Positions 2,532 through 61,393 of a stretch of 64,000 nucleotides of DNA are shown here, in pieces. The translations under genes were made by a program, and so were the position numbers. The DNA lies in the NCBI GenBank assembly GCA_002869165.1, contig PKTK01000001.1, forward strand, positions 29,006-93,005, given 5' to 3'. This DNA is from Candidatus Parcubacteria bacterium (GTDB lineage Bacteria > Patescibacteriota > Patescibacteriia > Patescibacteriales > UBA12075). Under the pieces are notes generated by a model. That model saw only the letters and a program-made list of their open reading frames with translations. It did no database searches and was not told where the DNA came from. Numbering within the stretch: position 1 is the stretch's first letter; each line of letters starts with the position of its first letter.

Positions 2532-3683
2532 ATGTTAAATCCAATAAAAACAACAGACTTTGATGCTATTAGACTCAAACTAGCATCACCTGATGAGATA
2601 AAAGAATGGTCTCATGGAGAAATTTTGCGACCAGAGACAGTTAATTATCGTACTCAAAAACCAGAAAAGGACGGTCTTTTCTGTGAAAAAATATTTGGCC
2701 CATCAAAAGATTGGGAATGTTATTGTGGTAAATATAAAAAAATTAGGTACAAAGGCATTGTATGTGACAAGTGTGGAGTTGAAGTTACTAGATCTATTGT
2801 TAGACGTGAAAGAATGGGGCATATTGAGCTAGTATCACCATGTACTCATATTTGGTTCCTAAGAGGACTTTCAAGTAAGATTGGTCTGATCTTTGGTCTT
2901 TCCATGCAAGCACTTGAAAAGGTTGTGTATTTTGCTAGTTTCATTGTTACAGATGTAAATGAAGAGTTAAGAGAAGCTACTCTAGAACAGATTAAAAATG
3001 AGTTTAAACAAAAGAAAAAACAAATTGAGTCAGAATTTACCAATCAATCAAAAGAGATCAAAAATAAAAAAGGTGCAATGATTAAAGAAGATAAGAGCGA
3101 GAAAGAAGTGGCTGAAGTTATTGAAAAGGAAGTTGAGATACTTGAAGGAGTAAAAGAGGAAAAATTAGCGAATTTGCAAGAAGCTTTTGATCAAGCACAA
3201 AGAGAGCTTAAGGACTTAAAACCTTTACTTATTATTTCAGAAAATGAATACCAAAATCTAAGTTTTAAATATGGACACATCTTCCAAGCAGGAATTGGAG
3301 CGGAAGCTATCAGACATTTACTTGAAAGAATAGATCTTGAAGAATCGATTAATCAAATGGAAGAAGAATTAGATGTAGTTATTGAAACGAAGAAAGAAAA
3401 GATTACTAGAAGACTTAAACTTTTTAAATCTTTGAAGGCAAACAATATCAGGCCTGAGTGGATGGTTCTTTCAACTATTCCTGTTATCCCTCCAGACCTA
3501 AGACCCATGGTAGCTTTGGATGGTGGACGTTTTGCTACTTCTGATCTTAATGATCTATATAGAAGAGTGATTAATAGAAATAATCGTCTAAAACAACTAA
3601 TTGATTTAAATGCTCCAGAGGTTATTAGAAGAAATGAAAAGCGTATGCTTCAAGAAGCAGTAGATGCTTTGATTGATAACTAA
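2532..3683 (+). CDS. rpoC: RNA polymerase beta-prime subunit, N-terminal segment ending at an in-frame TAA
   Basis: Zn-ribbon [23 protein letters not shown] and the conserved [12 protein letters not shown] just before the stop at 3681-3683. Confidence 0.93.
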
Positions 3684-3728
3684 GCAAGACATGGTAAAAC
3701 TGTAATTGCCTCAACAGGTCAAAAAAGA

Positions 3729-6521
3729 ATGCTTAAATCTTTGGCGGATTCCCTAAAAGGTAAACAGGGTCGTTTCCGTCAAAATTTGCTTGGTAAGCGT
3801 ATTGATTATTCAGGTCGTTCAGTTATTGTGGTTAACCCAAAACTTAGCTTAGACCAATGTTGTTTACCTAAGATTATGGCACTTGAACTATTCAAACCGT
3901 TTATCATTTCAAAATTAATTGAACAAGAACATGTACACAATGTTCGATCAGCTTCTAGATTTATTGAAGCAGGCAATGATGTGGTTTGGGATATTTTGGA
4001 AGATATTATTAAAGGAGCCTATGTTATGCTAAATCGTGCTCCTACTCTACATAGATTGGGTATCCAAGCTTTTAAGCCAACTTTGATTGAGGGTAAAGCA
4101 ATCCAGATTCATCCTTTGGTTTGTTCAGCCTTTAACGCTGACTTTGACGGTGACCAGATGGCGGTGCATGTACCTTTGACTAAAGAAGCTGTAAATGAAG
4201 CTGCTAATATAATGCTTTCAAGCAAGAATATTTTGAAACCAGCTACGGGTGATCCAGTTGTAGCTCCTGGTCAGGATATTGTTTGGGGAGCATATTATAT
4301 GACCGATGAGTTGAATAAGGATAAAGATGACAAAGATTTGAAAGTATTTTCATCTACCATGGAGGCAATTTATGCTTATGAGATGAAAAATATAGCTTTA
4401 CAAGATCCAATCATGGCAAAAATTGAAGGCCAAGGTATAATCCGAACTACAGTTGGAAGAATTATTTTTAATGATATTTTACCTGAGAAGTTAAGATACG
4501 TAAACAAAGTTCTTTTGAAGGGTGACTTAAAAAGACTTGTTAGACAATGTTATAGGTATTATTCTCAAGAAGAAACAGTTGAATTCATTGATAATCTAAA
4601 AAAGAGAGCCTTTGCTTATATTACCAAGTCAGGACTTTCTTGGGGTATGGGTGATCTGCCAAAATTTGAAGAAAAAGATAAATTGATTGCTGATACGCAA
4701 AAGATGGTAGAAGAAATTCAAGAGCAATATGAAGATGGTTTGTTAACTGATACAGAAAGATATGCCAAAGTGATTGAGCTTTGGACAAATGTAAAAGAAA
4801 AAGTCACTGATATTTGCAAAAAGGGTCTACCAGTTGATGGACCAGTTTATTCTATGATCGAATCTGGTGCTCGTGGATCATGGGCTCAGCTTACTCAGAT
4901 TTTGGGTATGAAGGGTTTGGTAACCTCTCCAAGCGGTGATATTATCGAGTTGCCAGTAAAAGGAAATTTTAAAAAAGGTTTTGGAGTTCTTGAATACTTC
5001 ATTTCTACTCACGGTGTTCGTAAGGGTTTGTCTGATACAGCTCTTAGAACTGCTAATGCTGGATATTTAACTAGACGTCTAGTTGATGTTTCTCAGGATG
5101 TTATAGTTACTGATGAAGATTGTGGCGATGAGGAAGGCACATTGATTACCAAAAAGGAAGCAGATGAAATTGGTTATTCTATGTTAGATAGAATTTTGGG
5201 TAGATATATGGCCAAAGACTTAAAAAATGTCAAAGGAAAAGTATTAGCAAAAGCAGGAGATCTTATTACCGAGGATATTGCTGATGAAATAAAAGACGAA
5301 GAAATTGAAGAAGCATCTATTAGATCCGTCCTTAGTTGTAAAATTGCTAGAGGTGTCTGTAAAAAATGTTATGGTTGGGATCTTGGATATAATAAACCAG
5401 TTAAGATTGGAACAGCTGTTGGTGTAATTGCTGCTCAATCAATTGGTGAGCCCGGTACCCAGCTAACTATGAGAACTTTCCATACTGGTGGTGTAGCCGG
5501 TGCTGATGATATTACTCAAGGGCTTCCTCGTGTTGAAGAAATTTTTGAAGCCCGTCCGCCAAAGAGAAAAGCTCTTATTGCAGATGTGGCTGGAAAAGTA
5601 AAGATTGAGGTTGCTGAAAGAAATATTGAAGACGAGAAAGGCAAAACTCTCATAGTCAGTCCACAAAGCAAGATTTTGAGCATTGGCTTTAAAGGTGAGT
5701 CAAGTGATAAATATTACTTTTCAGAATTGATAAAAGAGACAAATCTAAAAAATACAGAAAAAGGTAATAAGAAGAAAAAATTAACCAAGAAAGATATCAA
5801 GGTTCAAGTAAAGGATGGTGACAAAGTAAAAGCCAAAGATGTAATTATCAAGATTGGTACAGAAGCAATTGAGGCTACAAAAGGCGGCGAGGTGTCAATA
5901 GATGATAAGGGTGTTAAAGTAAGTTATAAGAAGAATAATGTAAAAGAATTTATTGTTCCTAAGGGTATATCTATTTTAGTACAAGATGGTGAAGAGGTAG
6001 AGAAGGGAGATCAACTCACAGATGGTTCTATGGATTTACAGCAGCTTTTTTCTCTTAGAGGTAAACTTGAGACTCAGAAATACATTATCAAAGAAATTCA
6101 AACAGTGTATTCATCACAAGGACAACCCTTGAATGACAAACACGTGGAAGTTGTCGCTAGACAAATGTTTTCTAGATTTTTGGTGATTAATCCAGGCGAT
6201 ACTCAGGTTCTACCTGGCGAAATTGTTGAGAATTCAGTTATCGAAAGAGCTAATTCTGAACTTGATGCTAAAGGCAAGAAAGTTGAAGCTGACCGATTGT
6301 TGCTTGGTATTACTAAGGCATCGCTTACAACTGACTCATTCCTTTCTGCTGCATCTTTTCAAGAAACAGCTAGAGTATTGATTGAAGCAGCGGTTAGCGG
6401 AAAAGTAGATTACCTAGAAGGATTAAAAGAAAATGTTATAATTGGTCGTTTGATTCCTTCTGGAACTGGTTACCAGGGAAAACAAGAGAGAGCAGATTAT
6501 TCTGTGGACATCGAAGAATAA
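3729..6521 (+). CDS. rpoC: RNA polymerase beta-prime subunit, C-terminal segment (same frame as 2532..3683; homology resumes at 3684)
   Basis: KGKQGRFRQNLLGKRIDYSGRSVIVV, catalytic NADFDGDQMAVH, and trigger-loop/bridge regions. Codons 3684-3728 read ARHGKTVIASTGQKR with no stop. Confidence 0.93.
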   Translation: MLKSLADSLKGKQGRFRQNLLGKRIDYSGRSVIVVNPKLSLDQCCLPKIMALELFKPFIISKLIEQEHVHNVRSASRFIEAGNDVVWDILEDIIKGAYVMLNRAPTLHRLGIQAFKPTLIEGKAIQIHPLVCSAFNADFDGDQMAVHVPLTKEAVNEAANIMLSSKNILKPATGDPVVAPGQDIVWGAYYMTDELNKDKDDKDLKVFSSTMEAIYAYEMKNIALQDPIMAKIEGQGIIRTTVGRIIFNDILPEKLRYVNKVLLKGDLKRLVRQCYRYYSQEETVEFIDNLKKRAFAYITKSGLSWGMGDLPKFEEKDKLIADTQKMVEEIQEQYEDGLLTDTERYAKVIELWTNVKEKVTDICKKGLPVDGPVYSMIESGARGSWAQLTQILGMKGLVTSPSGDIIELPVKGNFKKGFGVLEYFISTHGVRKGLSDTALRTANAGYLTRRLVDVSQDVIVTDEDCGDEEGTLITKKEADEIGYSMLDRILGRYMAKDLKNVKGKVLAKAGDLITEDIADEIKDEEIEEASIRSVLSCKIARGVCKKCYGWDLGYNKPVKIGTAVGVIAAQSIGEPGTQLTMRTFHTGGVAGADDITQGLPRVEEIFEARPPKRKALIADVAGKVKIEVAERNIEDEKGKTLIVSPQSKILSIGFKGESSDKYYFSELIKETNLKNTEKGNKKKKLTKKDIKVQVKDGDKVKAKDVIIKIGTEAIEATKGGEVSIDDKGVKVSYKKNNVKEFIVPKGISILVQDGEEVEKGDQLTDGSMDLQQLFSLRGKLETQKYIIKEIQTVYSSQGQPLNDKHVEVVARQMFSRFLVINPGDTQVLPGEIVENSVIERANSELDAKGKKVEADRLLLGITKASLTTDSFLSAASFQETARVLIEAAVSGKVDYLEGLKENVIIGRLIPSGTGYQGKQERADYSVDIEE

Positions 6522-6542
6522 GACTATTTAAATAATAAAAAA

Positions 6543-18285: not shown

Positions 18286-19719
18286 ATGACAACCGTAGCG
18301 TTGACAGAAAAACCATCAATTTATCATCGAGAAGAAGCTTCGGTTGTAATTTTCCCGACACAACCGTATTGGTTTTCAGCAACACAGGAAATTGAACAAA
18401 TTCTTGATGCGTTTAGTCTTAATAAGTCAGAGGAGATTATAAGCAAAATATCGGAAACATTTTGTATAAAGCAGGAAGAGGCAAAGGAAACCTATTTATC
18501 AATTGAAGAATTGTTATATTCTTCGGGAGTTTTAATTAAAAATGGACAAATATTAAAACCTCACGAGTTTTCTCCAGATTTTCAGGTTAATGATGTTGAA
18601 AATGTTATGGTTATAGCAACAACTCAAGAGTGTAACTTGTCTTGTCCGATGTGTTATGCGATGGCAAGTAAGAAAATGTTCAATGAGATGAACACACAAG
18701 AAATCAAAAGCATTGTCGATCAACTTGTTCGCATGCCTTGGGAAAATCGTATTTCTCGTGTCGCCCTGACTGGAGGCGAATTGTTTATGCGCCCCGATGC
18801 GATTGAATTAATTGAATATGTTCATCAGCAAGGTTTTTTTGTTCAAGTCAATACTAACGCTACTACATTGTCCACTAAACAAATCAAGAGATTATCTGCG
18901 CTTCCACAATTAAAAATGTAAGTTTCTTTAGACGGTTGTCAGGCTACTTCTCACGAGTTTATTAGGGGATCTGGTACATTTGGCATAACTATTGATACCA
19001 TTCGTTCGCTTTGCGAACAAGGAGTTTCGGTTGCTATTAACATGTTTGTTCATGCTGGTAATTTGAATGAGATTAAAGAAACTTTGCTACTCGCCGACAA
19101 TCTTGGCGTATCTGGGTTTAATTGTTTGAACATGATGAATGTTGGTCGAGGCAATAGTAAAAAAACAAAAGAAACTCTTGTCGGAGTTTCATTAAAAGAT
19201 TTTTATCGCACAGTTTTTGAAGCGATACGTTATGATGTTCAGTTGCAAAAGTTGATGATCAATTCAACATTTGCAAATCAAATAATGTGCATTGCAGGCG
19301 GAGTAAAGAGTCACAGTTGCGGTATCGGTACAAATCGGGCAGTATACGTAAAAGCTGATGGTACACTTTATCCATGTGCTGACACATCTTTGCCAGCATT
19401 TTGTTTGGGAAATTTGCGAGAAGATAAATTACTTGATATTTGGGATAATTCTACGTTGCTAAAAAATTTGCGGTCTTTGAATATTGATAATTTGAATTCC
19501 AGATGTTCTGCATGTGATGTCCGATATCAGTGTGCAGGCAATTGTCGAGGGGAGAATTACCAAACAACTGGTGATATCCAAAGCCCGCATTTTAAGTGTG
19601 AAGAGATTCATGACTCCATTCTTGAATTAATGTGGATTCTAACGGAGGAACCAGATATTTTTAAGATAAAAGTTGATGAGCTTTATGACAAAGTCAGTAC
19701 TCATGCTTCAATGGCTTAA
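18286..19719 (+). CDS. Radical SAM/SPASM peptide-maturase-like enzyme with N-terminal PqqD/RRE-like domain, interrupted by an in-frame TAA at 18919-18921
   Basis: CNLSCPMCY (CX3CX2C) motif. After the stop the frame continues as VSLDGCQATSHEFIRGSGTF. C-terminal SPASM cysteines CGIGTNRAVYVKADGTLYPC and CSACDVRYQCAGNC. ORFs 18286..18921 and 19042..19719 share one frame. Confidence 0.8.
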
Positions 19720-22518: not shown

Positions 22519-22640
22519 ATATTTATTATAAAAATTAGTAAAATAAAGGGAGCAGTAACCTGCTCGAACCCAACATCCTCACGAAGAGTTGTTGAAGCGG
22601 TACTGCTCCCATATATCAAAACGACAATGAGTCGCTATGA

Positions 22641-24323: not shown

Positions 24324-24452
24324 TTTCGTAAAAATAAAAATGCCATCGTGGGGACAATGACGTTCGGTAAACGTCACCAGATATAAATATCTGACACGAA
24401 AGCATTTTTATTTACCGAATGTTTTTTGTACTTTATTTTTCTTCAAGCAAAC

Positions 24453-24517
24453 AAAAAAGCCCGAAGAAAAAACACTTAGGCAGTATGATTTTGCCTAATT
24501 CTACTTTTTCTTCGGGC
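24453..24517 (-). terminator. Long hairpin terminator downstream of 24671..25306
   Basis: gcccgaagaaaaa / tttttcttcgggc arms with an inner hairpin, and a T-run on the minus strand. Confidence 0.7.
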
Positions 24518-48176: not shown

Positions 48177-48451
48177 TCTATAGTGGGGGGTGAAACTGGT
48201 TTTGGAGAGGTTTGATTTATTTGATGATAGGTGTTTTTTATGATATAGGTATGAGTAATGTTAAAACACAAGATCTGACATCTGTTAATCAAGAACATTA
48301 TAATTCTAGACCTGACACTTATTTGAATGAGGAGATTAAGAAACAATTAGGTAAAATTGAGTTTAAAATTTAGAAAATGACTTATCCACTTTGTTTTTCT
48401 GACATAGGGAAAACGTTAAAATTAATAAATTTTATAAATATAATCAATTAT

Positions 48452-48838
48452 ATGAAAATAGAAAATAAAGAGAAGCCCACTAAAGAAATAATGGATAAAT
48501 ATTGTAATAAAATAGAACAATACTTATCTGCTCATGGGGTAAAAATAAAAATTGAGTTATACGATATACCGAGTGAAATGGTTGTTAGTGTTGGTGGATC
48601 AATGATCAAAAAAAAGTTGATTTGGATTAAACAAGTTCAAATAAATAGTCAAGCTACAGGTGATATGTCAGTAAAATTACACAGAAGAAGCCTTACAGAT
48701 GATATTACAGAACATGACATATGGAGGGATGCCTGGTATATTCAAGAGCAGATATATAAAAAATTAGGCATAGTTCCAGATATTAATAACAAAGAAGAAG
48801 GGTATTGGCATCTATGGGAACAAAAATATAAAGTATAA
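48452..48838 (+). CDS. Hypothetical protein, first gene of the TIR operon
   Basis: ORF only. Ends 11 nt before the TIR gene. Start taken at MKIENKEK. Confidence 0.45.
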   Translation: MKIENKEKPTKEIMDKYCNKIEQYLSAHGVKIKIELYDIPSEMVVSVGGSMIKKKLIWIKQVQINSQATGDMSVKLHRRSLTDDITEHDIWRDAWYIQEQIYKKLGIVPDINNKEEGYWHLWEQKYKV

Positions 48839-48849
48839 TGTTTTGATAT

Positions 48850-49728
48850 ATGAGTGCAAAAAAATACAAAGTAGCACTTTCTTTCGCTGGTGAACAAAGG
48901 GATTATGTAGAAAAGGTTGCTAATAGTTTGAAAGAAAAGGGGGTCGATTTTTTCTATGATAGGAACAATGAGATAGAAATGTGGGGAGGAAGTTTAGTGG
49001 AATACTTTGAGAAAGTATTTAAGAATGAGTCTGATTATATAGTGTTGTTTTTGTCAAAAGAGTATGCAGAAAAAGCGTGGCCAAGCTTTGAGCGTGAGGT
49101 TGCTTTGGGACGTTGGATATTTGAAAAAAGATGTATCTTTCCTGTACGATTTGACAAGACAGAAATTCCAGGTTTACCGGACACAATTTCTTATTTGAAC
49201 ATAAAAAATCTTTCACCTGAGGAGTTGGCAGATGCAATTATGACAAAGATTGGAATTAAGTATGACACTGCAAAAGAAAAAACCATGCAAACAGAAAAAT
49301 CAGTCGATTTTAGAGTGCCAAAAAAGAAAGTTAATATAAATCCATACAAGGAACGTAATAATTTTATTGCATTTGTAACAAAAGAGTTGGAGCGTAGATG
49401 TGAAGTAGTGGATGGATTAGATTTTTATAGTGAGGATGTTGGTGATAAGGTAAGCGTCAGAATATTAAGCCAAGGTGATGATTTGTACTCCATTGATATT
49501 CATAAGAATGGCTTATCGAATGATAATGGAGTATCTTTTTCATATGGTCAGGGGAGTTTACAAGCAAGCGGGTTTAATGCGCATGGAAATTTTGAATGGG
49601 ATACGGAGAAAGAGGAAGTTGTTTTGAACTACACTAATTTCAGTGTCTTTAAAAACGGAGAAGAGAAGATAACTTTTTTAGAGTATTGTGATCAGGTTTG
49701 GGACACAATAATTGAATTACTTGAGTAA
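48850..49728 (+). CDS. TIR-domain protein with an unknown ~150-aa C-terminal domain
   Basis: KVALSFAGEQRDYVEKVANSLKEKGVDFFYD...VLFLSKEYAEKAWPSFEREVA matches the bacterial TIR pattern. Confidence 0.7.
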   Translation: MSAKKYKVALSFAGEQRDYVEKVANSLKEKGVDFFYDRNNEIEMWGGSLVEYFEKVFKNESDYIVLFLSKEYAEKAWPSFEREVALGRWIFEKRCIFPVRFDKTEIPGLPDTISYLNIKNLSPEELADAIMTKIGIKYDTAKEKTMQTEKSVDFRVPKKKVNINPYKERNNFIAFVTKELERRCEVVDGLDFYSEDVGDKVSVRILSQGDDLYSIDIHKNGLSNDNGVSFSYGQGSLQASGFNAHGNFEWDTEKEEVVLNYTNFSVFKNGEEKITFLEYCDQVWDTIIELLE

Positions 49729-49732
49729 GTAT

Positions 49733-50656
49733 ATGAAATTTTCAAAAGAGTTTAAAATTATATATTGGTTAGTATTAGTAGTATAATTGTCTGGCTATAT
49801 AGTTTTTAGATTTGTTAATAGCTCTTTTGATAATTCAAATAATATTGATTCGCTTGTTTTGATCTTTTGGTTTGCATTAATTGTTTTTCCTCTTATTAAA
49901 GAAATTAATATATTAGGAGTAAGTTTTAAAAGGGAGATTGAGGACGTTAAAAGAGAAGTGCGAGATTCTGTAAATAATTTAAAAATGGATTTAAGAAATA
50001 ATGTAAATGTAAATCCAAATATAAATATCTATTCTCAAAAAGCAAGTGATGATGAAAAGGAAGCAAAAATAAAAGAAGATATATTGGAAGAAATTACAAC
50101 CGAGGCAAAAAATGAGGTTGATTGTGATGATAAGCTTGATATTACTGAAAAGGTTATGGTTAGGATAGGTGAAAAGGAAGATAAAGCAAAAGGCAAGTTT
50201 TTTGACAAGGATAGATACGATAAAATAAAAATGACAGAAGACTTGATTATGGGGTACTTAAATGATAGGTACGGTGAGAAATTTGCTCCATATGTAAAAC
50301 TAGAAACATCAACAGGAAAAAAATTAATAGTAGACGGTGCAGTATTTGAAGATGGTCAGTTTACTAAATTTATCGAGATCAAATTAATTTCTGGAAAGGG
50401 ATTTGATAATTTTAAGTACATTGCGGGGAGATATTTAAGAAAGCTTAACAATTTTGGTTTAAAGGTGCCTATGTTGTTTTTACTAGTATCTGAATCTATA
50501 GACGAAATTAAAGCGCTTGAAATAAAAGATGATTTAAATTTCTTATGTTATACAAATAGAACTGGACGAGGAGATAAATTTAATGTTGTAGATATCGAAT
50601 TTTTTAAATTAGATGGTGAAAAAATTATTAAAGTTGAACCAAAATCAAAAAAATGA
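49733..50656 (+). CDS. TM, coiled-coil and PD-(D/E)xK-like nuclease-fold protein, with an in-frame TAA at 49784-49786
   Basis: ATG lies 4 nt after the TIR stop. MKFSKEFKIIYWLVLVV-TAA-LSGYIVFRFV reads as one TM helix. The C-terminus carries IVDGAV...FIEIKL (D...ExK). Confidence 0.55.
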
Positions 50657-50773
50657 ATAATTGAAAAAAAACAAGATTAGAGGATATTGCCAAGGCTATA
50701 GACATTTTACACAGGACACCGCCATTAAAAAAAGGAAAAACAGAGCTAGGCTCCGTTCTCCCCATGTTTTAGC

Positions 50774-50917
50774 TTATTTTTTCTTTCTCCTGTTTGGAGT
50801 TTGAGACAGCGCGCTTCCAGCCGCTGTTTTTGATTTGCGACTAGTACGTTTGTCTCGGAGTACGTTACTAGAAGCGCTTGCAGCACGTTTGCTAGTAACT
50901 TTTTTTGAATTTTTCAC
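50774..50917 (-). CDS. 47-aa basic Ser/Ala-rich small protein (GTG start), tentative
   Basis: KNSKKVTSKRAASASSNVLRDKRTSRKSKTAAGSALSQTPNRRKKK. G/C-richer than its surroundings. Confidence 0.3.
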   Translation of the reverse strand: MKNSKKVTSKRAASASSNVLRDKRTSRKSKTAAGSALSQTPNRRKKK

Positions 50918-51050
50918 TCTGTTTTTGTTTTGGTAATCTAACACCCTAGCCTCAAGATTGGTTTATTAACTCGTCACCAGGGAACGATAGACGCGTCTTA
51001 AGTTCATTTTAACAAAATCGTGCTACAGTGTCAATATTATTTACACACAG

Positions 51051-51079
51051 TTGACAAAAATATTTACAGTTGCTATAAT
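51051..51079 (+). promoter_or_regulatory. Consensus sigma70-type promoter of the TA operon
   Basis: TTGACA, 17-nt spacer, TATAAT. Confidence 0.7.
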
Positions 51080-51101
51080 TTGGGTAATTAAAGAAATATA
51101 T

Positions 51102-51794
51102 ATGATAAAAGCTAAATTTATAGAAAAATTGAGAATTAAGAATGATTTAAGTAAGGCAGAAGTTGCTAATGTAATAGGAGTTTCTCGTCCTACTTATATG
51201 CAGATAGAGAAGGGGGCAAGGGAATTGACCGTTTCTGAGGCTAGCAAATTAGCTAAGCTTTTTGATATTGATTTGAATGATTTGCTTTTAAGTAAAGAAT
51301 CCTCTAGGCAAGTAGTTATAGAGAAGGATAATTCAGATACTAAAAAATCTGATATTAAGATTCGCATACAAGAAAAAGATATAGAGAAGTTTAAACAGGT
51401 TTTTTTGTATATTATTTCCAAAGTTGGGGCTAAGCCAAATGTTGGGCAGACTGTGATCTATAAGTTGCTTTATTTTATAGACTTTGATTTCTATGAGAAA
51501 TACGAGAAAAACTTGATGGGGCTTAGATATATCAAGAATCATTATGGCCCTACTCCGGTTGAGTTCAAAACAGTAGTTGACGAAATGGAGCGAGAAGGTG
51601 ATATTGAGAGAGTGAAGTCTAAACATTTCCAATATGAACAGAAGAAATATTTGCCAGTTGTTGCACCTGATATAAGTGCTTTGTCAGCTGAGGAGATTAA
51701 GCATATCGATGAAGTAATTGCGAAGTATTCTTCAAAAACCGCAAAAGAACTAAGTGATTATTCTCATAGTGATACTCCTTGGATGATACATTAG
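51102..51794 (+). CDS. XRE-HTH plus DUF4065/Panacea-domain antitoxin (PanA-like), ending at an in-frame TAG; the frame continues to 51875
   Basis: HTH region SKAEVANVIGVSRPTYMQIEKG and Panacea-like region VIYKLLYFIDFDFYEKYEKNLMGLRYIKNHYGPTP. After the TAG, NGEEISYESVFYR... runs on to overlap the toxin start. Confidence 0.75.
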   Translation: MIKAKFIEKLRIKNDLSKAEVANVIGVSRPTYMQIEKGARELTVSEASKLAKLFDIDLNDLLLSKESSRQVVIEKDNSDTKKSDIKIRIQEKDIEKFKQVFLYIISKVGAKPNVGQTVIYKLLYFIDFDFYEKYEKNLMGLRYIKNHYGPTPVEFKTVVDEMEREGDIERVKSKHFQYEQKKYLPVVAPDISALSAEEIKHIDEVIAKYSSKTAKELSDYSHSDTPWMIH

Positions 51795-51864
51795 AACGGA
51801 GAAGAAATAAGTTACGAATCAGTTTTCTATCGTGACGATGATCATTCCGTAAGAGATTACGAGG

Positions 51865-52212
51865 ATGAAATTTAATGAGACTAACGAATTCAAAAAAGAC
51901 TACAAAAAGCTTTCAAAGAAATTTAGAACTTTGAAGAAGGATTTGGATACATTCATTAAACTTTTGAAGATAAATCCTCGGGGAAATAGTCGACATTTTG
52001 TCAGTCTTACGGAAACAGATGTTTGTGTTGTGATAAAGGCTAGATTGTTTTGTCAAAGTCTTAAGGGTAAATCATTGCGAATCGTGTATGCTTATAACAA
52101 AAGCAGTGAAGAGTTTGATTTGATTAAGATAGATTTTATAGAAGTGTTTTTCAAAGGTGATAAGGCAAGGGAAGATAAAAAAAGAATTATAAACTATATA
52201 GATAGCAAATAA
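51865..52212 (+). CDS. RelE/ParE-superfamily toxin
   Basis: FKKDYKKLSKKF...LRIVYAY...FFKGDKAREDKKRI pattern. Confidence 0.6.
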   Translation: MKFNETNEFKKDYKKLSKKFRTLKKDLDTFIKLLKINPRGNSRHFVSLTETDVCVVIKARLFCQSLKGKSLRIVYAYNKSSEEFDLIKIDFIEVFFKGDKAREDKKRIINYIDSK

Positions 52213-52214
52213 AT

Positions 52215-52237
52215 ACGTCTAAGAGGGACGTTTTTTT
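52215..52237 (+). terminator. Short terminator after the toxin gene
   Basis: acgtc / gacgt stem followed by T7. Confidence 0.5.
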
Positions 52238-52260
52238 GCCTTAATAATGGGGAAGGAATT

Positions 52261-52980
52261 ATGAAAATTTTAAATATAAAAAAGAAGAAGCAAGTGCAAG
52301 TTATTGGAAGATTTTTTTTGATATTTTTTGTTCCGGTATGTTTATATTTTTTTGTTTGTTTTTATGTTTTTTCAGCATTTTATTATTCTAAAGTGGATTT
52401 ACAGACTGATATGGAAAATAAGTGGTCAGATAATTCTGAAGTATACAAAGCAGCCTCTGGTAACTTGGATGAAAGTTTAAAAATAAAAAAAGACAATATA
52501 AAGAAAGTTTGTGGACTTCTTGGTGAAAGCTCCTTCTTTGTGAAGTATAAACTTACAGCCAGGAATAAGGTCTATTTAACTATCGAGGAATTAAAACAAG
52601 GGAGAATTTCAATGTTAAAAAAGATACCTATATCGGTTGGTATTGATTCAGATGGTTATGATTTTGTTATCATACCCCCAAGTGAAAAAGTTGTTTTAGA
52701 GAAAGATTTTAATATTAAAAACCTAGACTTAATTTTTAATAACAATGAAGTTGGGTACAATTATGGGGACAACAAATCTGTTTTTGATAGATATGTGAAT
52801 ATAGTGAATGCAGAAGGAAGACAATTTAAATATAAAATAAACGGGAGAGTTTATTTGTCCATGACACCGATAACTAGTACAACATTGATGCTTCCGTTTT
52901 TTATTTTTATAGCTTGGATCGGTTTTTTGAAAGTTTGTCAGGAGTCTTTAAAAATGTACAAAGAAGGTATATTTAAATAG
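52261..52980 (+). CDS. Hypothetical membrane protein (N- and C-terminal TM segments)
   Basis: ORF with hydrophobic ends. No family recognised. Confidence 0.5.
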   Translation: MKILNIKKKKQVQVIGRFFLIFFVPVCLYFFVCFYVFSAFYYSKVDLQTDMENKWSDNSEVYKAASGNLDESLKIKKDNIKKVCGLLGESSFFVKYKLTARNKVYLTIEELKQGRISMLKKIPISVGIDSDGYDFVIIPPSEKVVLEKDFNIKNLDLIFNNNEVGYNYGDNKSVFDRYVNIVNAEGRQFKYKINGRVYLSMTPITSTTLMLPFFIFIAWIGFLKVCQESLKMYKEGIFK

Positions 52981-53125: not shown

Positions 53126-53296
53126 ATGCGTAGAAAAGTTGAAGAACAAAATGTTCGTAAAATTTATAGGCACGGTGATAGTCGTGCTGTGACCTTGCCA
53201 GCCGAAATCCTCCGTGAGCTTGGGTGGCGGGATAATCAAAAAGTAGTCGCAAAGAAATATGGAAAGGGGATTTTGATCACGGATTGGGAGGAGTAG
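53126..53296 (+). CDS. AbrB/SpoVT-MazE-type small DNA-binding protein, 56 aa (not in the track)
   Basis: MRRKVEEQNVRKIYRHGDSRAVTLPAEILRELGWRDNQKVVAKKYGKGILITDWEE. Confidence 0.6.
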   Translation: MRRKVEEQNVRKIYRHGDSRAVTLPAEILRELGWRDNQKVVAKKYGKGILITDWEE

Positions 53297-53493
53297 GACA
53301 GTTTGGTGTGACTATCAGACTGCTTCGCTGAGTTTATGTTTGCGAAGGCGGGTGCTCGCAATAACAGGAGAGAGGATTGGGAAGAATAGTCATAAATTCT
53401 CTTTCCTGGCTATCGTTCACCCCCCCCCGCATGAAGACGGGGTAGGCAGGGATGATAAGAAGGGGGAGTTATATAATAAATTTCTTATTAAAT

Positions 53494-54438
53494 ATGGAAA
53501 AGTTAAATATAGTAGGTCAAAATTTAGATCAATCTGATATCGATGCAGCTAGTGATTATATTAAAGGAGAGAGAAAGAGACTTACAGGTGCTAGAATTGA
53601 GGGGTCATATGAAAAAGAGGATTCTGATAAGGAGATAATTAATTTTGCTAATAATTTATTGAATAGCGAATTAAGTGAGCTTGGAGAGGCAGAGCTAGAG
53701 GATTTGGAAAATAAAGTATATTTATTTCCAGATAATAAATTTCGGGAGATCTTTGATGGTGCCGATCGTGCATTGTATGACAGTATAAATGACTCAATTG
53801 CTATAAATCTTGATGAAAATATTGATGATCTAGACTATTTGTCTAAGATTCTACATGAAGCTATTCATAAGTGTTCTTATAATAAATTTTTTTTGGATAA
53901 AGAGGATAATCATATTGCTGTTGCTAGAAGTGGTTATAAAAATAGTTCTCAAAAAGAAGGGGTATATTTTCGTGGTTTCAATGAAGTTGTTACCGAGAAG
54001 ATGAACCAAGATATTATGGAAAAAAATTGGGATGCTATAGTTAGTAAGCTGAATTTGAATGATGATATCATAGCTGCCTATAGAGAACGTAGATTGGATT
54101 ATCATGATTATATTGATGTAGTGGATGGTCTTGTAAATAAAATTGCTGATAAAAAAAGTGAAAGCAGTGAGAAAATATGGTTAAATATTAAAAAGGGTTA
54201 TTTAAATGGAGAGATGATGCATCTGCGAGAAATTGAAAAGGAATTTGGTCCTGGAGCATTGAGGTTTTTGTCATTGATGACCGAAAATCCAGATAATTTA
54301 GCTCATGAAGAATTGATGTTAAATATTAAAGGTTTTTTTGATACAGATGATCAAGATGAAAAAAATAAGTATGCACAGAAATTATTACCAAACAATGAGT
54401 ATAATAAATATTTAAACACGGTGACTCGCGTGCTGTGA
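53494..54438 (+). CDS. Hypothetical protein with an HExxH motif (ILHEAIHK)
   Basis: ORF only. Its last 7 codons run out of frame into the AbrB-gene fragment. Confidence 0.5.
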   Translation: MEKLNIVGQNLDQSDIDAASDYIKGERKRLTGARIEGSYEKEDSDKEIINFANNLLNSELSELGEAELEDLENKVYLFPDNKFREIFDGADRALYDSINDSIAINLDENIDDLDYLSKILHEAIHKCSYNKFFLDKEDNHIAVARSGYKNSSQKEGVYFRGFNEVVTEKMNQDIMEKNWDAIVSKLNLNDDIIAAYRERRLDYHDYIDVVDGLVNKIADKKSESSEKIWLNIKKGYLNGEMMHLREIEKEFGPGALRFLSLMTENPDNLAHEELMLNIKGFFDTDDQDEKNKYAQKLLPNNEYNKYLNTVTRVL

Positions 54439-54542
54439 CCTTGCCAGCAGAGCTCCTCCGTGAGCTTGGGTGGCGGGATAATCAGAAGGTTGTGGCGAAG
54501 AAATATGGAAAGGGGATTTTGATCACGGATTGGGAGGAGTAG
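54417..54542 (+). pseudogene. 5'-truncated second copy of the AbrB-type gene
   Basis: Encodes HGDSRAVTLPAELLRELGWRDNQKVVAKKYGKGILITDWEE with no start codon. It is part of the 144-nt repeat 53171-53314 / 54417-54560. Confidence 0.65.
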
Positions 54543-54810
54543 GACAGTTTGGTGTGACTAGGGCGCTTCAACAAATTATAAATAAAAATAAGTATTTACT
54601 TTCTGATACTGGAGGTAATATGAGTAAAAGTTTTTTATATTATCTTATTAAAAGAAAGGTTAAATGATCTAGACTGGAGAGAAAAGTAGGAATTGGTTGT
54701 TGAGAGAAAAAGAGGAAGAGTGTTTATCCGGAATTTACGGAAGAAATGGGGGGGGTGTTAAGTGGATTAAAATTTCAAAATATATAACTCAGCTTCGATA
54801 AAAGTCTAAT

Positions 54811-55904: not shown

Positions 55905-57521
55905 TCAATCTAAGAAAAGCCTGACTTTTTCTCTTCTAAAAGTTTCGCAATTTCGAAAACCAACTTGTGGATAATACCCTTCTTCAACAACACAACAGAG
56001 TAAATAGTCTTGAAAAATAAGCCAGTACTTCCCATATTTTTGATGTATAAGACCCCCAAAAAAAGAAGCTTCTTCTTTTTCATAACTACCAAAACGTTGT
56101 TGGGCTTCTTGGATTGTCATTCCGATCCTAAGATACTTATTAAAGGCTTTTTCTCTCTCAAGTGCGTGCTGGGCTTCATTAAGCTTCTCACTGATATCAT
56201 ACATATTACCATCAATGTATTTCCTATTTTTATTTACCTCCTCTATGAAGTCTTCGGCTTTGTTGATTAGCGACTCAACTTTATCATGATTGTTCATATT
56301 TGCCATGGCTGATTCAAGATAATCCCATGCCTTATTATACAAGTAGTTATTACGTTCTTTTATTTTTTTTATCTCCGATAAGATCTCCTTTTTGGTATTA
56401 TCATATTTTGAATAATAATAGTAATATGACTCTTGAACTAGCCTTGGTTCAGGCTTGAAAACTTCAAAATCAACTTTTTTAAGCGTTTCAAATGCCTTGG
56501 CAATACTTGATAATCTCTCTTCCTCACTTTTGTAAGTGATTTGGGCTTCAGCGGCGTATTTTTCCGCCTCATCAAGAATGAGTTTTTCGGGTTGTTGCTT
56601 TGCGGTATTGATGATCAAACTTCTTACTCTGTCATACTTGGAAAAGTAATAGGAATAAGACTCTTGAACTAGCCTTGGTTCAGGCTTGAAAACTTCAAAA
56701 TCAACTTTTTTAAGCGTTTCAAATGCCTTGGCAATACTTGATAATCTCTCTTCCTCACTTTTGTAAGTGATTTGGGCTTCAGCGGCGTATTTTTCCGCCT
56801 CATCAAGAATGAGTTTTTCCGCACTTTGAAATTTGGTGTTGACTATCAAGTCTCTTATATTTGCATATTTAGAAAAATAATAGTCATAACCACTTTCGGT
56901 TAAACCCGATGAAGTTAGAACATAAAAGTTGATGCCCTTGATTATTTGCATCGCATTTAAGATTTTGTCTATTTTTTCTCCATAAGACAAATATCCGTGT
57001 TGAGAAGATATCGCACATTCCTCAGCGGTATCAAGGGCTCGCTTTTCTTTAATTTGCTCAGAAATAAACGCTTCGATATTACTCTTTTCGACAGTAACTC
57101 GAACCCAAACAGTGCATGAATCTTGATCAACCCACTGCCCTTGCAAAATTATACCCTTTAAAAGTACCTTGGTATAATGCTTGCTTAGTTTTTTCATTTC
57201 GTCAGCGCTAAGTTTATTGTCGCTTACAGAGACATAGTGCGAAATAGATATTTCTACCATTGTCTCTATTGATTGAGCTACTTTTTCTACCGCTGCGTTA
57301 TAGGCACTGTCAACTTGGTCCTGAAAACCATTTTTACTTTTATGGGACATTCCGACACCCTCATATACACTTGTATCGTAAAGGCCATAATTTTTAACCC
57401 AATCTGGAGCAGGAACCTGTTCATAGAAATCGCAATCATATTGGATACTACCATCATCTTTGGCACAGGCTGAAACCAGTGTCATTAATATTATTGTAAA
57501 GATCAGTGTTTTTGAATTCAC
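55905..57521 (-). CDS. Lipoprotein: N-terminal LPP20-like domain, 77-aa tandem repeat, C-terminal SmpA/BamE-like region
   Basis: GTG start with RBS gggagg. Lipobox LVSAC. PAPDWV...YEGVGMS motif. An exact internal duplication. Confidence 0.65.
   Translation of the reverse strand: MNSKTLIFTIILMTLVSACAKDDGSIQYDCDFYEQVPAPDWVKNYGLYDTSVYEGVGMSHKSKNGFQDQVDSAYNAAVEKVAQSIETMVEISISHYVSVSDNKLSADEMKKLSKHYTKVLLKGIILQGQWVDQDSCTVWVRVTVEKSNIEAFISEQIKEKRALDTAEECAISSQHGYLSYGEKIDKILNAMQIIKGINFYVLTSSGLTESGYDYYFSKYANIRDLIVNTKFQSAEKLILDEAEKYAAEAQITYKSEEERLSSIAKAFETLKKVDFEVFKPEPRLVQESYSYYFSKYDRVRSLIINTAKQQPEKLILDEAEKYAAEAQITYKSEEERLSSIAKAFETLKKVDFEVFKPEPRLVQESYYYYYSKYDNTKKEILSEIKKIKERNNYLYNKAWDYLESAMANMNNHDKVESLINKAEDFIEEVNKNRKYIDGNMYDISEKLNEAQHALEREKAFNKYLRIGMTIQEAQQRFGSYEKEEASFFGGLIHQKYGKYWLIFQDYLLCCVVEEGYYPQVGFRNCETFRREKVRLFLD
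56428..56819. repeat. Tandem duplication inside the lipoprotein gene: two identical 161-bp blocks, period 231 bp
   Basis: 56428-56588 is identical to 56659-56819. Confidence 0.9.
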
Positions 57522-57652
57522 TTTATACCTCCCGATTATACCTTTAATATTAAAAAATTATTAAAATCAAAAACATTATTAATATTAAAACTTACTATAA
57601 AAAACAATTATTGTCAACAACTAATTATCAAAAATAATAAAACAAAGAATCT

Positions 57653-58291
57653 TTGCCATATTTGGTTGTAGTAGTAGATGAACTTGGGGATTTGATGTCA
57701 GCAGCAAAGAAAGAAGCTGAAAGTGCCATTATCAGACTGGGTCAAAAATCAAGAGCGGCAGGTATTCATTTGGTTTTGGCAACTCAAAGGCCAAGTGTAG
57801 ATATATTATCTGGACTTATCAAAGCTAATATGCCAGCCAGGGCTGCTTTTTCTGTAACAAGTTCGGTTAATTCTAAAACAATCCTAGATTTCACTGGAGC
57901 TGAAAAATTGATGGGTCAAGGCGATATGTTATATATTAATTCAGCTATGAGCAAGCCAATACGTATACAAGGAGCTTTTGTTTCAAAAGAAGAAATAAAA
58001 GAAGTTGTAAAATACACTAAAAAGAAAGCAGGTAAGGCAAGCTATGAAGAGAGTTTTGAAAATAATACTCAAAGCGATTATAGCTTGGGATATGAAGATG
58101 AGGGGGATGTTATGATGGAAGAAGCCAAAAAACTCATACTTGAAACAACTAAAGCATCAACCTCAATGCTCCAATCCCGTCTTGGCATAGGTTACCCAAG
58201 AGCAAACAGAATATTAGACAAGCTAGAAAAGCAGGGAATAGTAGGTCCTAGTATCCAGAATAAACCGAGGGAGGTTTTTGTTAATAAATAA
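57653..58291 (+). pseudogene. ftsK: FtsK/SpoIIIE C-terminal fragment (from Walker B to the gamma domain); the 5' two-thirds are missing
   Basis: Begins at LPYLVVVVDELGDLM and contains ATQRPSVDILSGLIKANMPARAAFSVTS and the winged-helix SMLQSRLGIGYPRANRILDKLE. Two stop codons lie directly upstream in frame. Confidence 0.8.
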
Positions 58292-58690
58292 GCTAATGTT
58301 TAGTGATTGGAAGTAATAGGATTATGTGTTGTGGCAATCAGATTGCTTCGCTCTGCTTCCTTTCAAGGCAGGTACAGCGCAATGACAAAAAAAGGATTAT
58401 GATTGACGATTGGGGAGGCTAATGAAATTTTTAAAATGCAGTATATCTGCATTTTTTAATTTATTATTAATAATTTTTTTGTATATTTAAAATACAATAA
58501 TATCTTGGCAAGGTTGTGTGTAATAGAATAATTACTAAATATTAATATTGTCTTTGTACCATTATTCACTAAAGACAAGCGTAAAAGTATGAGAAACACA
58601 ACTAAAGCAATAGCACTATTTTTAATTTTAGTGTTTTTTTTGTTTGAGTAAATACTATGTTTTTTAAGGAAATTTTAGTATAATATTAAT

Positions 58691-59611
58691 ATGCCTAAAA
58701 TAATCAAAGAAAAAATAAAGATTGGTATATCAGCATGCAATTTCGGTGCTTTGACAAGATACAATCGAAAAGGTTGGGATAAACTGGAGTCATTAGGGAG
58801 AGAAAAAGACGCATTTATTTGGACACCTGTTTGTCCTGAAGTGATGTCAGGTCTTGGCGTCCCAAGACTTCCTATGAAATTAGTTGATGGAAATGGTGAT
58901 GATTTTTGGCAAACTAAAGCCAGAATGAAAAATAGAAAAGGAGAGAATGTAAGCACCCAAGTTAGAAAAGGAGCGCAAATGGCTATGGATAATTTGAAAA
59001 ACGCACAAATTGAAGCATTTGTTTTCATGGAGGGAAGCCCAAGTTGTGGGGTATATCGAACAACTCTAAAAAATAAAAGACTGGGAAAACCACCAGGAGT
59101 TTTTGGTTCACTTCTTCTTGAAGAAGATATTTTTTTGATACCTGCACTGGACTTGGATAGTCCTGTAAAGTGGTGGGATTGGAGAAGGAGGCTGCATATG
59201 TTTGTTTGGTTGAAAAGAGAAGAGCTGAATTCAAAAAAGCAAATCATAGATATGTGGCATGACTTTAAGTTTGTTTGCCAGGAAATAGATAGGGCAAAAG
59301 CTGATGAGATTGGTAGAACTATAGCTACAATGCCCAAAAAATATTCAATCAAATTTGCAAATGATATCAAGTCAAGTATCTTGAAGCTTCTGCGTAGACC
59401 ATCTAGTATAAAAAGGATAAAAGCAAATGCAGAAAAGCAGATGGCGCATTACAATAAGCATATGGGGCTAAAGTTTGAAACAAAAATGCCATCCACTGAA
59501 TCAGCCAAAAGAAAATTTTTTGAAAAATTAATAAGTTTAGAAAAAGAAGCTATAAATAATAAAATTAATATTGGAATTGTTCCCGTTTTGTATCGGGAAG
59601 ATTCCAGATGA
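58691..59611 (+). CDS. DUF523 (TudS-like Fe-S) plus DUF1722 (YbgA-like) fusion protein
   Basis: ISACNFG, PVCPEV and GSPSCG cysteine motifs, with a helical C-terminal half. Confidence 0.6.
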   Translation: MPKIIKEKIKIGISACNFGALTRYNRKGWDKLESLGREKDAFIWTPVCPEVMSGLGVPRLPMKLVDGNGDDFWQTKARMKNRKGENVSTQVRKGAQMAMDNLKNAQIEAFVFMEGSPSCGVYRTTLKNKRLGKPPGVFGSLLLEEDIFLIPALDLDSPVKWWDWRRRLHMFVWLKREELNSKKQIIDMWHDFKFVCQEIDRAKADEIGRTIATMPKKYSIKFANDIKSSILKLLRRPSSIKRIKANAEKQMAHYNKHMGLKFETKMPSTESAKRKFFEKLISLEKEAINNKINIGIVPVLYREDSR

Positions 59612-59618
59612 AAAACAT

Positions 59619-60020
59619 ATGATTCCACAAATTATTAAATTATATCTTATTTCTGTCCCGGTTTTCTTTGCCATTGATTTGCTTTGGCTTGGGGTAGTGG
59701 CTAGAAGTTTTTATGTAAAGTACTTAGGAGAAATGCTCAAGAGTCCGCCAAACTGGACTGCCGCTGTTATCTTCTATCTACTTTTCTTGCTTGGTTTGGT
59801 TGTTTTCGTTATTGAACCAGCAGTTGCAAAAGATTCTTTGAAATACGCCTTGTTTATGGGCGCATTTTTTGGATTTATCACTTATATGACTTATGATTTG
59901 ACCAATTTAGCTACCCTAAAGAACTGGCCAATTGAGATAGTGATAGTTGATATTATATGGGGAGCAGTATTGTCTATGTCGGTCTCAGCAGTTACTTTTT
60001 ATTTATTTAAAATATTTTAA
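59619..60020 (+). CDS. DUF2177-like membrane protein
   Basis: Four TM helices. Start taken at MIPQIIKLY. Confidence 0.5.
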   Translation: MIPQIIKLYLISVPVFFAIDLLWLGVVARSFYVKYLGEMLKSPPNWTAAVIFYLLFLLGLVVFVIEPAVAKDSLKYALFMGAFFGFITYMTYDLTNLATLKNWPIEIVIVDIIWGAVLSMSVSAVTFYLFKIF

Positions 60021-60024
60021 AATT

Positions 60025-60495
60025 ATGAAATATCTTCAAGCAATTTTGTTTATAATTGCAAGCCAAATGGCTGGTATTATTGGTACAGTTTTTACAAGCA
60101 AGGCAATACCAACTTGGTATGCAGGAGTTAATAAGCCATCATTCAATCCACCAAATTGGATATTTGGTCCAGTTTGGGTCACTCTTTATACCATGATGGG
60201 GATAGCTGCCTATCTAGTTTGGAAAGATTGGGCAAACAACGCCGTTGCAAAATACGCTACCATTTTATTTTTTGTGCATTTAGCCTTCAATGCTTTGTGG
60301 TCCATACTTTTCTTTGGACTCAAAAATCCGATGCTAGCCTTTTTTGAGATAATTGTGCTATGGTTGATGATTGTCGCACTTATTGTTATGTATTATCAGA
60401 TTAATAAAACAGCTAGCTATTTACTTGTTCCTTACTTGTTGTGGGTAAGTTTTGCAAGCGTACTTAATTTCTATATTTGGAGACTTAATATGTAG
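60025..60495 (+). CDS. tspO: TspO/MBR tryptophan-rich sensory protein
   Basis: WYAGVNKPSFNPPNWIFGPVWVTLYTMMGIAAYLVW and five TM helices. Confidence 0.85.
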   Translation: MKYLQAILFIIASQMAGIIGTVFTSKAIPTWYAGVNKPSFNPPNWIFGPVWVTLYTMMGIAAYLVWKDWANNAVAKYATILFFVHLAFNALWSILFFGLKNPMLAFFEIIVLWLMIVALIVMYYQINKTASYLLVPYLLWVSFASVLNFYIWRLNM

Positions 60496-60541
60496 ATTTT
60501 TTGTGCTTTAGTGTAGCTTATTTTGCCTCTGGCAACTCACC

Positions 60542-60619
60542 TTGTCATTCCTGCGGAGGCAGGAACCCAGACATACCAGACTTATATTTTCTAGATTCCT
60601 GCCTCCGCAGGAATGACAA
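60542..60619. repeat. Perfect 24-bp-arm palindrome of the tgtcattcctgc family
   Basis: ttgtcattcctgcggaggcaggaa, a 30-nt spacer, then ttcctgcctccgcaggaatgacaa. Confidence 0.85.
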
Positions 60620-60625
60620 AGATAA

Positions 60626-61393
60626 ATGAATTATATAGATGTTACAATTTGTCAGTTGTTCGCACTACTACTCTTTGTGCATTTGTTTTTTTTGATCGGC
60701 ACTAGAAAAAAAAGAAATGACATTGCTGATGTTGCTTGGGGACTTGGCTTTGTGTTGCTTGCTGTAGTAGGCACAATACATAATCCAAATACAAAAACTA
60801 TTATAGTATTAGTTTTGCTTATGTTTTGGGGATTCAGACTGGCTAGGCATATATTTAATAGATTCAGAAGCCACAAAGAAGAGGATATGAGATATCAAGA
60901 ATTCAGAAAAGCTTGGGGCTCTAGACAGGTTTTGGGAGCTTATTTCAAAGTATATTTACTCCAAGGTTTTAGTTTGATCTTAGTTGCTATGCCGATTTTA
61001 GTGCTTGCGAGATTTTCAGACAATAGCTTCAGTTTTATAAACATGATTGGGGTGGCGCTGTGGTTGTTTGGTTTTGTTTTTGAAGTAGTGGCAGACAAAC
61101 AGTTAAAGGATTTTGTAAAAGACAAGAAGCCCGGTCAGATTATGAAAAACGGTTTGTGGAGTTATTAACGACATCCAAACTATTTTGGTGAGGCTGTTAT
61201 TTGGTGGGGGATATTTTTAATCAGCTGGGGAACGCCCTACTTCTACATTGGCCTCATCGGACCCATCACCATAACCTTGCTGCTTCGTTTTGTCTCTGGT
61301 GTACCGATGGCTGAAGCTAGGTACAATGACAATCCGGAGTTTATTGAATACAAGAAAAACACCCCAGCTTTTATTCCTAATTTTTTTAAATGA
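60626..61393 (+). CDS. DUF1295/steroid-reductase-like membrane protein, interrupted by an in-frame TAA at 61166-61168
   Basis: [22 protein letters not shown]. The family motif is normally W.[10 protein letters not shown]. The frame stays open to the TGA at 61391-61393. Confidence 0.75.

Follow-up and report, generated by a model that had tools for sequence, protein, structure and literature searches.

The five in-frame stop codons that interrupt otherwise intact genes in this stretch of DNA are the visible part of 38 substitutions that are private to one assembly and bear no sign of selection. Most likely, these stops represent sequence noise rather than recoding, read-through or gene decay. 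The changes are confined to the assembly, almost uniform in spectrum, dependent on sequence context and indifferent to coding consequence, and a like effect occurs in a second assembly of the same strain. We infer that the lesion is oxidised guanine (8-oxoG) and that the changes arose in vitro or were otherwise non-heritable.

The window, that is, the whole stretch of DNA analysed here, covers 64 kb of a public MAG deposited at NCBI as Candidatus Parcubacteria bacterium (locus-tag prefix C0583) and lies on a 584.7-kb contig; its genes include two NUDIX genes. It was compared with public assemblies of the same strain: JGI 3300007102, ENA ERZ794999 (coverage 24x), contigs of ENA ERZ794998 (roughly 3x) and Logan SRR5894289, with ENA ERZ794999 and Logan SRR5894289 possibly derived from one read set and hence perhaps not mutually independent. 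Identity between the window and the sister assemblies was 99.90-99.97% and no rearrangements were found; against JGI, there were no indels over 63.8 kb. Private substitutions were counted over 63,763 compared bases, and 35 of the 38 could be polarised by at least two sister assemblies, the other three (position 61167 among them) by a single one.

The initial annotation had described five genes, each with a single stop and no frameshift and with coding sequence resuming behind it, in core and island genes alike. All of this was confirmed. The interrupted genes are as follows:

2532-6521, + strand: rpoC; TAA at 3681-3683, S384* by C>A at 3682, ancestral codon TCA
18286-19719, + strand: radical-SAM/SPASM gene; TAA at 18919-18921, S212* by C>A at 18920, ancestral codon TCA
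49733-50656, + strand: gene with a hydrophobic N-terminus; TAA at 49784-49786, S18* by C>A at 49785, ancestral codon TCA
51102-51875, + strand: HTH + SocA_Panacea antitoxin; TAG at 51792-51794, E231* by G>T at 51792, ancestral codon GAG
60626-61393, + strand: DUF1295 gene; TAA at 61166-61168, S181* by C>A at 61167, ancestral codon TCA

In the sister assemblies, four of the five sites carry TCA (Ser) and the fifth GAG (Glu), and each of these genes is called at its full length. The single change from TCA to TAA proposed earlier thus accounts for four stops, the fifth being GAG>TAG. In rpoC, the stop (...ALIDN*ARHGK...) precedes the NADFDGD active-site motif; position 3682 is C in both JGI and ENA ERZ794999, where RpoC is called as 1329 aa, and of 66 relatives, 37 have Ser at residue 384 and none has a stop there. 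The same two assemblies have C at 18920 (...LPQLKM*VSLDG...), with the gene called as 477 aa and matching Radical_SAM and SPASM in Pfam when its uninterrupted sister version is used. They also have C at 49785, inside MKFSKEFKIIYWLVLVV*LSGYIVFRFV, and call this gene as 307 aa. It directly follows a TIR gene (TIR_2 in Pfam, sister version), and its product is a membrane protein to which Pfam assigned no family above threshold; its earlier labelling as a nuclease is therefore not borne out. For the antitoxin, the frame beyond the TAG runs to 51875 and overlaps the next ORF, which starts at 51865, as had been proposed; JGI and ENA ERZ794999 have G at 51792, call the gene as 257 aa (HTH_3 and SocA_Panacea in the sister version) and keep the overlap at 51865. 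The DUF1295 site was polarised against JGI only, in which contig Ga0102541_1231305 has C at 61167 and a gene of 255 aa; the Pfam match spans residues 21-246 and includes the stop site.

The stops are accompanied by 33 other private substitutions of like kind, spanning 3861-63900:

G>T: 3861, 5939, 9655, 11808, 14041, 15820, 16167, 17787, 19288, 19446, 28544, 28738, 41347, 44077, 48320, 49140, 52510 and 55276
C>A: 5732, 9858, 12530, 15740, 24430, 34095, 38799, 43575, 43881, 48738, 52126, 54650, 63368 and 63900
G>C: 33259

Of all 38, a single one is G>C and the other 37 are G:C>T:A, with neither transitions nor indels among them. If transitions made up half of natural SNPs, the probability of seeing none in 38 would be 4e-12. 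The protein variants specific to the window occur in the NCBI record only, among about 15 billion proteins. Spacing along the window is Poisson-like (variance/mean about 1, p=0.39). The coding effects comprise 23 missense, 4 synonymous, 5 nonsense and 6 intergenic changes, to be compared with 26.0, 3.4, 4.2 and 4.4, respectively, under a uniform random G>T/C>A model and with 22.5, 4.5, 6.7 and 4.3 under a context-weighted one. Since the observed classes are close to random expectation, no purifying selection is apparent, rpoC included. Besides S384*, RpoC carries G444C and K1136N, of which G444C (G>T at 3861) falls within the invariant QCGLP motif, at a residue that is Gly in all 74 relatives where the motif was found. 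Five interrupted genes among the 65 of the window are indeed far more than a healthy genome should contain, as had been pointed out, but the number is what would be expected (4.2 to 6.7 nonsense changes) given 38 private substitutions that are mostly G:C>T:A.

A similar pattern was observed elsewhere. JGI has 12 private changes, all G:C>T:A. Ten of them lie at positions where the window is ancestral:

G:C>T:A private to JGI: 2572, 5476, 6901, 9263, 14464, 25407, 30776, 39169, 47921 and 50490

The remaining two lie just upstream of the window, and one of these is a stop in rpoB, S149* (TCA>TAA). Over 5.3 kb, the ENA ERZ794998 contigs contributed a C>A and a G>C, and no private changes were found in ENA ERZ794999 or Logan SRR5894289. 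No derived allele is common to any two of the window, JGI and ENA ERZ794998, so that the differences radiate as a pure star from two central assemblies.

The sequence context is strongly biased. In 43 of 47 cases, the base 3' of the affected G is a purine. Read on the C strand, the affected base is preceded by T 28 times (15.9 expected), by C 15 times (9.3), by A 3 times (12.2) and by G once (9.6), a departure from expectation with p=5e-6. T[C>A]N is the most favoured context and C[C>A]N ranks second. CCG>CAG shows no enrichment (1 observed, 0.93 expected). A purine 3' of the affected G fits reported preferences of guanine oxidation, in which GG contexts of low ionisation potential are favoured and GC contexts disfavoured (PMC11666792) and G is the preferred 3' neighbour of 8-oxoG (PMC6974700). 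There was no overall strand bias between G>T and C>A (p=0.40). An unexplained interaction of context with strand was noticed post hoc, most of the GG hits lying on the + strand and most of the GA hits on the - strand (p about 1e-3).

On the basis of these results, we consider it highly probable that the private changes are damage or error of the 8-oxoG type fixed in a single MAG assembly and not heritable variants of a living lineage. Oxidised guanine would pair with adenine and so generate G:C>T:A transversions, preferentially at guanines with a 3' purine and at random as to coding consequence. Most plausibly, template DNA would have been oxidised and then copied from few effective template molecules, as in whole-genome amplification or a very-low-input library. 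The need for this additional condition counts against the explanation: a 585-kb contig implies good coverage, at which library oxidation artefacts, normally of low allele fraction, should be outvoted. About one-eighth of G>T/C>A changes in AT-rich coding sequence would create a stop (TCA>TAA, GAR>TAR, GGA>TGA), which would be why five genes appear interrupted in a consensus with about 6 private substitutions per 10 kb relative to assemblies of the same strain.

C>A/G>T changes from guanine oxidation during sample preparation are a documented artefact (Costello et al., 2013; PMC3616734), and G>C is described as accompanying oxidative G>T errors (PMC8748355). The changes reported here resemble this Illumina 8-oxoG artefact in being almost exclusively C>A/G>T, G>C being occasional, blind to function and private to one library or assembly, and broadly also in depending on neighbouring bases. 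The artefact of Costello et al. (PMC3616734), however, has a low allele fraction among the reads and peaks at CCG>CAG, whereas here the changes are fixed in the assembly consensus and CCG is not enriched.

The strongest competitor, which nevertheless appears unlikely, is that the mutations are real and arose in vivo, in a population or dominant sub-lineage lacking 8-oxoG repair (the GO system, MutY/MutM) or under strong oxidative stress, with nonsense alleles tolerated through polyploidy, recency or dead cells. The 98% share of G:C>T:A and the T/C-flanked context suit MutY/MUTYH-type signatures equally well, which have A or T beside the mutated C (PMC6974700), and dominance of G:C>T:A is likewise the mark of GO-system mutators (in humans MUTYH, signatures 18/36). 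The similar spectrum in two assemblies could also be accommodated, and a contig of such length suggests that most reads carried the variant bases. Moreover, the interaction of context with strand counts against in-vitro damage, because damage fixed in vitro should be strand-symmetric, and such an asymmetry is easier to imagine in a cell; if the changes did arise in vivo, GG on the leading or sense strand and GA on the other would point to an effect of replication or transcription. On the other hand, G>T and C>A show no strand bias overall, and nonsense and missense changes stand at neutral expectation. Unlike the products of a mutator, the changes are neither inherited nor common to assemblies (the pure star), nor filtered by selection: RpoC is cut before its active site and, independently, RpoB is truncated in JGI, both of which would be lethal if heritable. 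A related proposal, that lesions or mutations formed in vivo through ineffective 8-oxoG repair or strong oxidative stress while RNA polymerase nonsense alleles were sheltered by multiple genome copies or came from dying cells, is likewise unlikely.

Two other explanations are both very improbable. Patescibacteria genomes are reduced, and ordinary pseudogenisation or decay of a reduced symbiont genome could be suspected where 5 of 65 genes are interrupted. Such decay would give frameshifts, deletions and mixed substitutions, but the private changes contain no indel and no transition, the essential rpoC is affected, and intact alleles exist in assemblies of 99.9% identity. Equally doubtful is a purely computational artefact without chemical damage, introduced at base calling, error correction or assembly (for example, cross-talk between the G/T and A/C channels). 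The single G>C apart, all differences before polarisation fell within the G<->T and A<->C classes, and the assemblies came from different pipelines, both of which could be read in this way. After polarisation by a third assembly, however, all changes were directional, G>T or C>A and never T>G or A>C, and the strong dependence on a 3' purine matches guanine chemistry; coverage would also outvote miscalls just as it would damage.

Finally, the stops might be decoded, TAA and TAG being read through or suppressed by a suppressor tRNA, an altered release factor or partial reassignment in this lineage of Patescibacteria. Candidate-phyla bacteria and phages are known to reassign or suppress stop codons (genetic codes 4, 25 and 15), and some related candidate phyla have reassigned UGA. 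The present case resembles these in that stops stand in frame at conserved, residue-bearing positions of homologues in an AT-rich Patescibacteria genome, with no frameshift and with conserved sequence after each. It differs in that TAA is the main terminator of the lineage, ending 37 of 64 window genes (TAG ends 16 and TGA 11, so that all three terminate genes here, as the initial annotation had it), and the window has a single tRNA, Trp-CCA, and no suppressor tRNA. With TCA or GAG at all five sites in the same strain, no stop at RpoC position 384 in any of the 66 relatives and 33 non-stop changes of like chemistry alongside, decoding is extremely unlikely. The initial annotation was right to regard wholesale reassignment as improbable, whereas its suggestions of suppressor tRNAs, read-through, release-factor change or an unhealthy genome gain no support, sense codons in sister genomes being the very observation that it had named as telling against them; its overall interpretation is thus supported in part.

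These results remove a tempting false lead, namely the seeming recoding or read-through of TAA and TAG in a candidate-phyla bacterium. They also reveal that a public, highly contiguous MAG contains consensus errors of one chemical type at about 6e-4 per base, a rate at which about 8% of its genes are broken and roughly one gene in three gains missense changes, and that a second public assembly of the strain has a like problem at a lower rate. Such errors inflate pseudogene counts, may mislead inference of the genetic code, and distort dN/dS and analyses of strain variation. They can be detected by comparing near-identical assemblies and tabulating the substitution spectrum.

Translation of the window, which is AT-rich (~34% GC) and gene-dense, confirmed the five interruptions described in the initial annotation: each locus has one in-frame stop, and the same frame is conserved beyond it.

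Interrupted genes of the window, with the corresponding codon in other assemblies of the same strain (sisters)
3681: TAA in rpoC; S384*, C>A, sisters TCA
18919: TAA in a radical-SAM/SPASM gene; S212*, C>A, sisters TCA
49784: TAA in the gene after the TIR-domain gene; S18*, C>A, sisters TCA
51792: TAG in an HTH + SocA_Panacea antitoxin gene; E231*, G>T, sisters GAG
61166: TAA in a DUF1295 gene; S181*, C>A, sisters TCA

When all six frames were scanned for long open stretches (minimum 25 codons) interrupted by a single stop, four of the five genes were recovered, along with ordinary gene junctions; the stop at 49784 was missed because only 17 codons lie 5' of it. RpoC position 384 was surveyed across 80 relatives at species level (Patescibacteria/Parcubacteria, with RpoC identities of up to 75%): Ser (37), Gly (19), Asn (9) and Ala (1) were found, and a stop in none.

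Several other features were observed in the window. Its island genes, listed below, are likely defence and toxin-antitoxin genes.

Island-like and repeated features of the window
20803-31405 and 48377-52980: island-like content
Island genes: a 571-aa serine recombinase (Resolvase), an 887-aa KAP-family NTPase and an Mrr-like restriction endonuclease
Island genes: a TIR_2-domain protein followed by a 307-aa membrane protein that has no Pfam family, so that the earlier 'nuclease' label is unsupported
Island genes: the HTH-Panacea antitoxin and a 115-aa partner without a family
53160-53314 and 54406-54560: two ~155-nt direct copies (90% identical) flanking the gene at 53494-54438, the first overlapping a small MazE-like ORF (53126-53296); they may reflect duplication of an antitoxin gene or be the termini of an inserted element
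56401-56862: a 231-nt (77-codon) unit duplicated in tandem, 89% identity, within a 538-aa ORF on the minus strand (55905-57521)

Sister assemblies were retrieved by exact-protein look-ups using unaffected window proteins.

Same-strain assemblies compared with the window
JGI metagenome 3300007102: contig Ga0102541_1201516 (window 1-56,499) and contig Ga0102541_1231305 (window 56,737-64,000)
ENA ERZ794999: NODE_58, 151 kb, coverage 24
Logan SRR5894289: same-strain assembly
ENA ERZ794998: short contigs, coverage ~3

The window and its sisters were colinear, with 99.90-99.97% identity. The sole indel among the assemblies lies in an intergenic poly-G tract (54747-54755): ENA ERZ794999 has G9 where the window and JGI have G8, which could reflect either slippage during assembly or true variation in homopolymer length. 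The 231-nt repeat is where the JGI contigs and the ENA contig stop; short-read assemblies thus break there, whereas the window's assembly crosses it. In the sisters, all five genes were called at full length, encoding 1329 aa for RpoC, 477 aa for the radical-SAM/SPASM protein, 307 aa for the membrane protein, 257 aa for the Panacea antitoxin (whose gene overlaps the next one) and 255 aa for the DUF1295 protein. Sense codons occupy all five sites there (TCA, TCA, TCA, GAG and TCA, respectively).

Among ~15 billion proteins, window-specific variants were present in only one NCBI record, the 584,723 bp contig of the Candidatus Parcubacteria bacterium MAG with locus-tag prefix C0583. Exact look-ups returned no match for the truncated DUF1295 product or for 62675-63520 in its window form, with L232I; this fits private variants that are missing from the index of contigs, although four further variant proteins are represented, in their NCBI versions, in the exact-sequence collection. 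Exact-pattern scans of genome and metagenome contig collections gave no match to the rpoC and DUF1295 sites with either allele, and the strain seems to be absent from these collections. Searching the literature for the accessions of these runs, assemblies, samples and proteins turned up no relevant paper.

The window differed from all sisters at 38 positions (63,763 bases compared), comprising 19 G>T, 18 C>A and one G>C, with neither transitions nor indels. Thirty-five of these could be polarised by at least two sisters, namely JGI plus ENA ERZ794999 or Logan, the latter two of which may share reads. If half of natural SNPs are transitions, the probability of observing none in 38 is 4e-12. Another 12 changes are private to the JGI assembly, 10 of them within the window and 2 just upstream of it, and every one is G>T or C>A. 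One of them, TCA>TAA (S149*), splits rpoB into 148 and 933 aa at a site ~630 bases before the window begins (1468-1470 in sequence L001, equivalent to 2728-2730 in L092); an intact 1150-aa rpoB is present in ENA ERZ794999. ENA ERZ794999 and Logan had no private substitutions, and in 5.3 kb of the ENA ERZ794998 contigs (~3x) there were two, a C>A and a G>C. No derived allele was common to any two assemblies, no overall strand bias was observed between G>T and C>A (p=0.40), and the events were Poisson-like, without clustering along the window.

Adenine opposite 8-oxoguanine leads to G:C>T:A changes, and oxidised guanine is also known to yield G>C, less often (PMC3616734; PMC8748355). In the 47 polarised in-window events, the mutated C was preceded on its 5' side by T in 28, C in 15, A in 3 and G in 1 (expected 15.9, 9.3, 12.2 and 9.6, respectively; p=5e-6); that is, a purine lay 3' of the hit guanine in 43 of the 47. 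Oxidation has been reported to prefer a G located 3' of 8-oxoG (PMC6974700), and to favour the low-ionisation-potential contexts TGG/AGG over TGC/AGC (PMC11666792). The observed 3'-purine bias fits these preferences. The artefact hotspot of Costello et al., CCG>CAG, was not enriched here (observed 1, expected 0.93). Hits on the plus (sense, G-rich) strand fell at GG (13) and GA (9), whereas those on the minus strand fell at GA (19) and rarely at GG (2), with a GA:GG site ratio of ~1.7 on either strand. The GA strand asymmetry gave p=0.0013 in a post hoc test, picked after seeing the data, on a small sample. This unexplained strand-by-context interaction accounts for the fact that four of the five window stops and the JGI rpoB stop are TCA>TAA, and that GAA>TAA was never seen although its target codons are ~3 times as numerous (964 GAA versus 325 TCA).

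We also analyzed the coding effects by reverting the 38 changes and then applying every possible G>T/C>A change to this ancestral sequence, in which none of 65 genes had an internal stop. The expected fractions were 68% missense, 9% synonymous, 11% nonsense and 12% intergenic.

Observed changes, with uniform and context-weighted expectations
Missense: 23 observed; 26.0 and 22.5 expected
Synonymous: 4 observed; 3.4 and 4.5 expected
Nonsense: 5 observed; 4.2 and 6.7 expected
Intergenic: 6 observed; 4.4 and 4.3 expected

Five stops are thus the number to be expected from 38 hits of this type in the absence of selection. RpoC carries three of the changes: S384* (with the NADFDGD catalytic motif downstream of it), G444C (within the QCGLP motif, at a Gly invariant in 74 of 74 relatives) and K1136N. 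Together, these could not be borne by a living lineage, and the independent rpoB truncation in JGI makes the same point.

On the basis of these results, the stops are the nonsense members of a set of oxidation-type substitutions that are private to the assembly and unselected. It is very probable that these substitutions are not heritable, but entered the consensus as fixed damage or error. How they got there is the weak point of this reading. Ordinary library oxidation errors have a low allele fraction and should be outvoted by coverage, and the 585-kb contig implies good coverage; we therefore infer that few effective template molecules, for example, after whole-genome amplification of low biomass, might have let the errors into the consensus. 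An origin in vivo, from a mutator or oxidative stress, appears improbable, considering that some hits would be lethal, that the class ratios are neutral and that derived alleles form a star-like pattern, unshared between assemblies. Two NUDIX hydrolase genes in the window (31427-31930 and 35127-35588), either of which may be a MutT-type 8-oxo-dGTPase, would bear only on this rival. Low-coverage consensus alone is hard to square with the 585-kb contig. Cross-talk between the G/T and A/C channels was rejected as the changes are strictly directional once polarised, N-to-A conversion by read-format tools as all four bases would be affected, and pseudogenisation or gene decay given the lack of indels and transitions. 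Codon reassignment or suppression disagrees with the sense codons in sisters, with TAA as the main terminator (37 of the 64 genes whose 3' end lies in the window, versus 16 TAG and 11 TGA) and with the lack of a suppressor tRNA within the window, where Trp-CCA is the sole tRNA. Selenocysteine or pyrrolysine would need other codons (four of the five are TAA), and sisters have Ser or Glu.

The five stops observed initially are confirmed in this sequence, whereas a biological significance for them is not supported. Apart from a quality warning on a public MAG, they offer nothing new.
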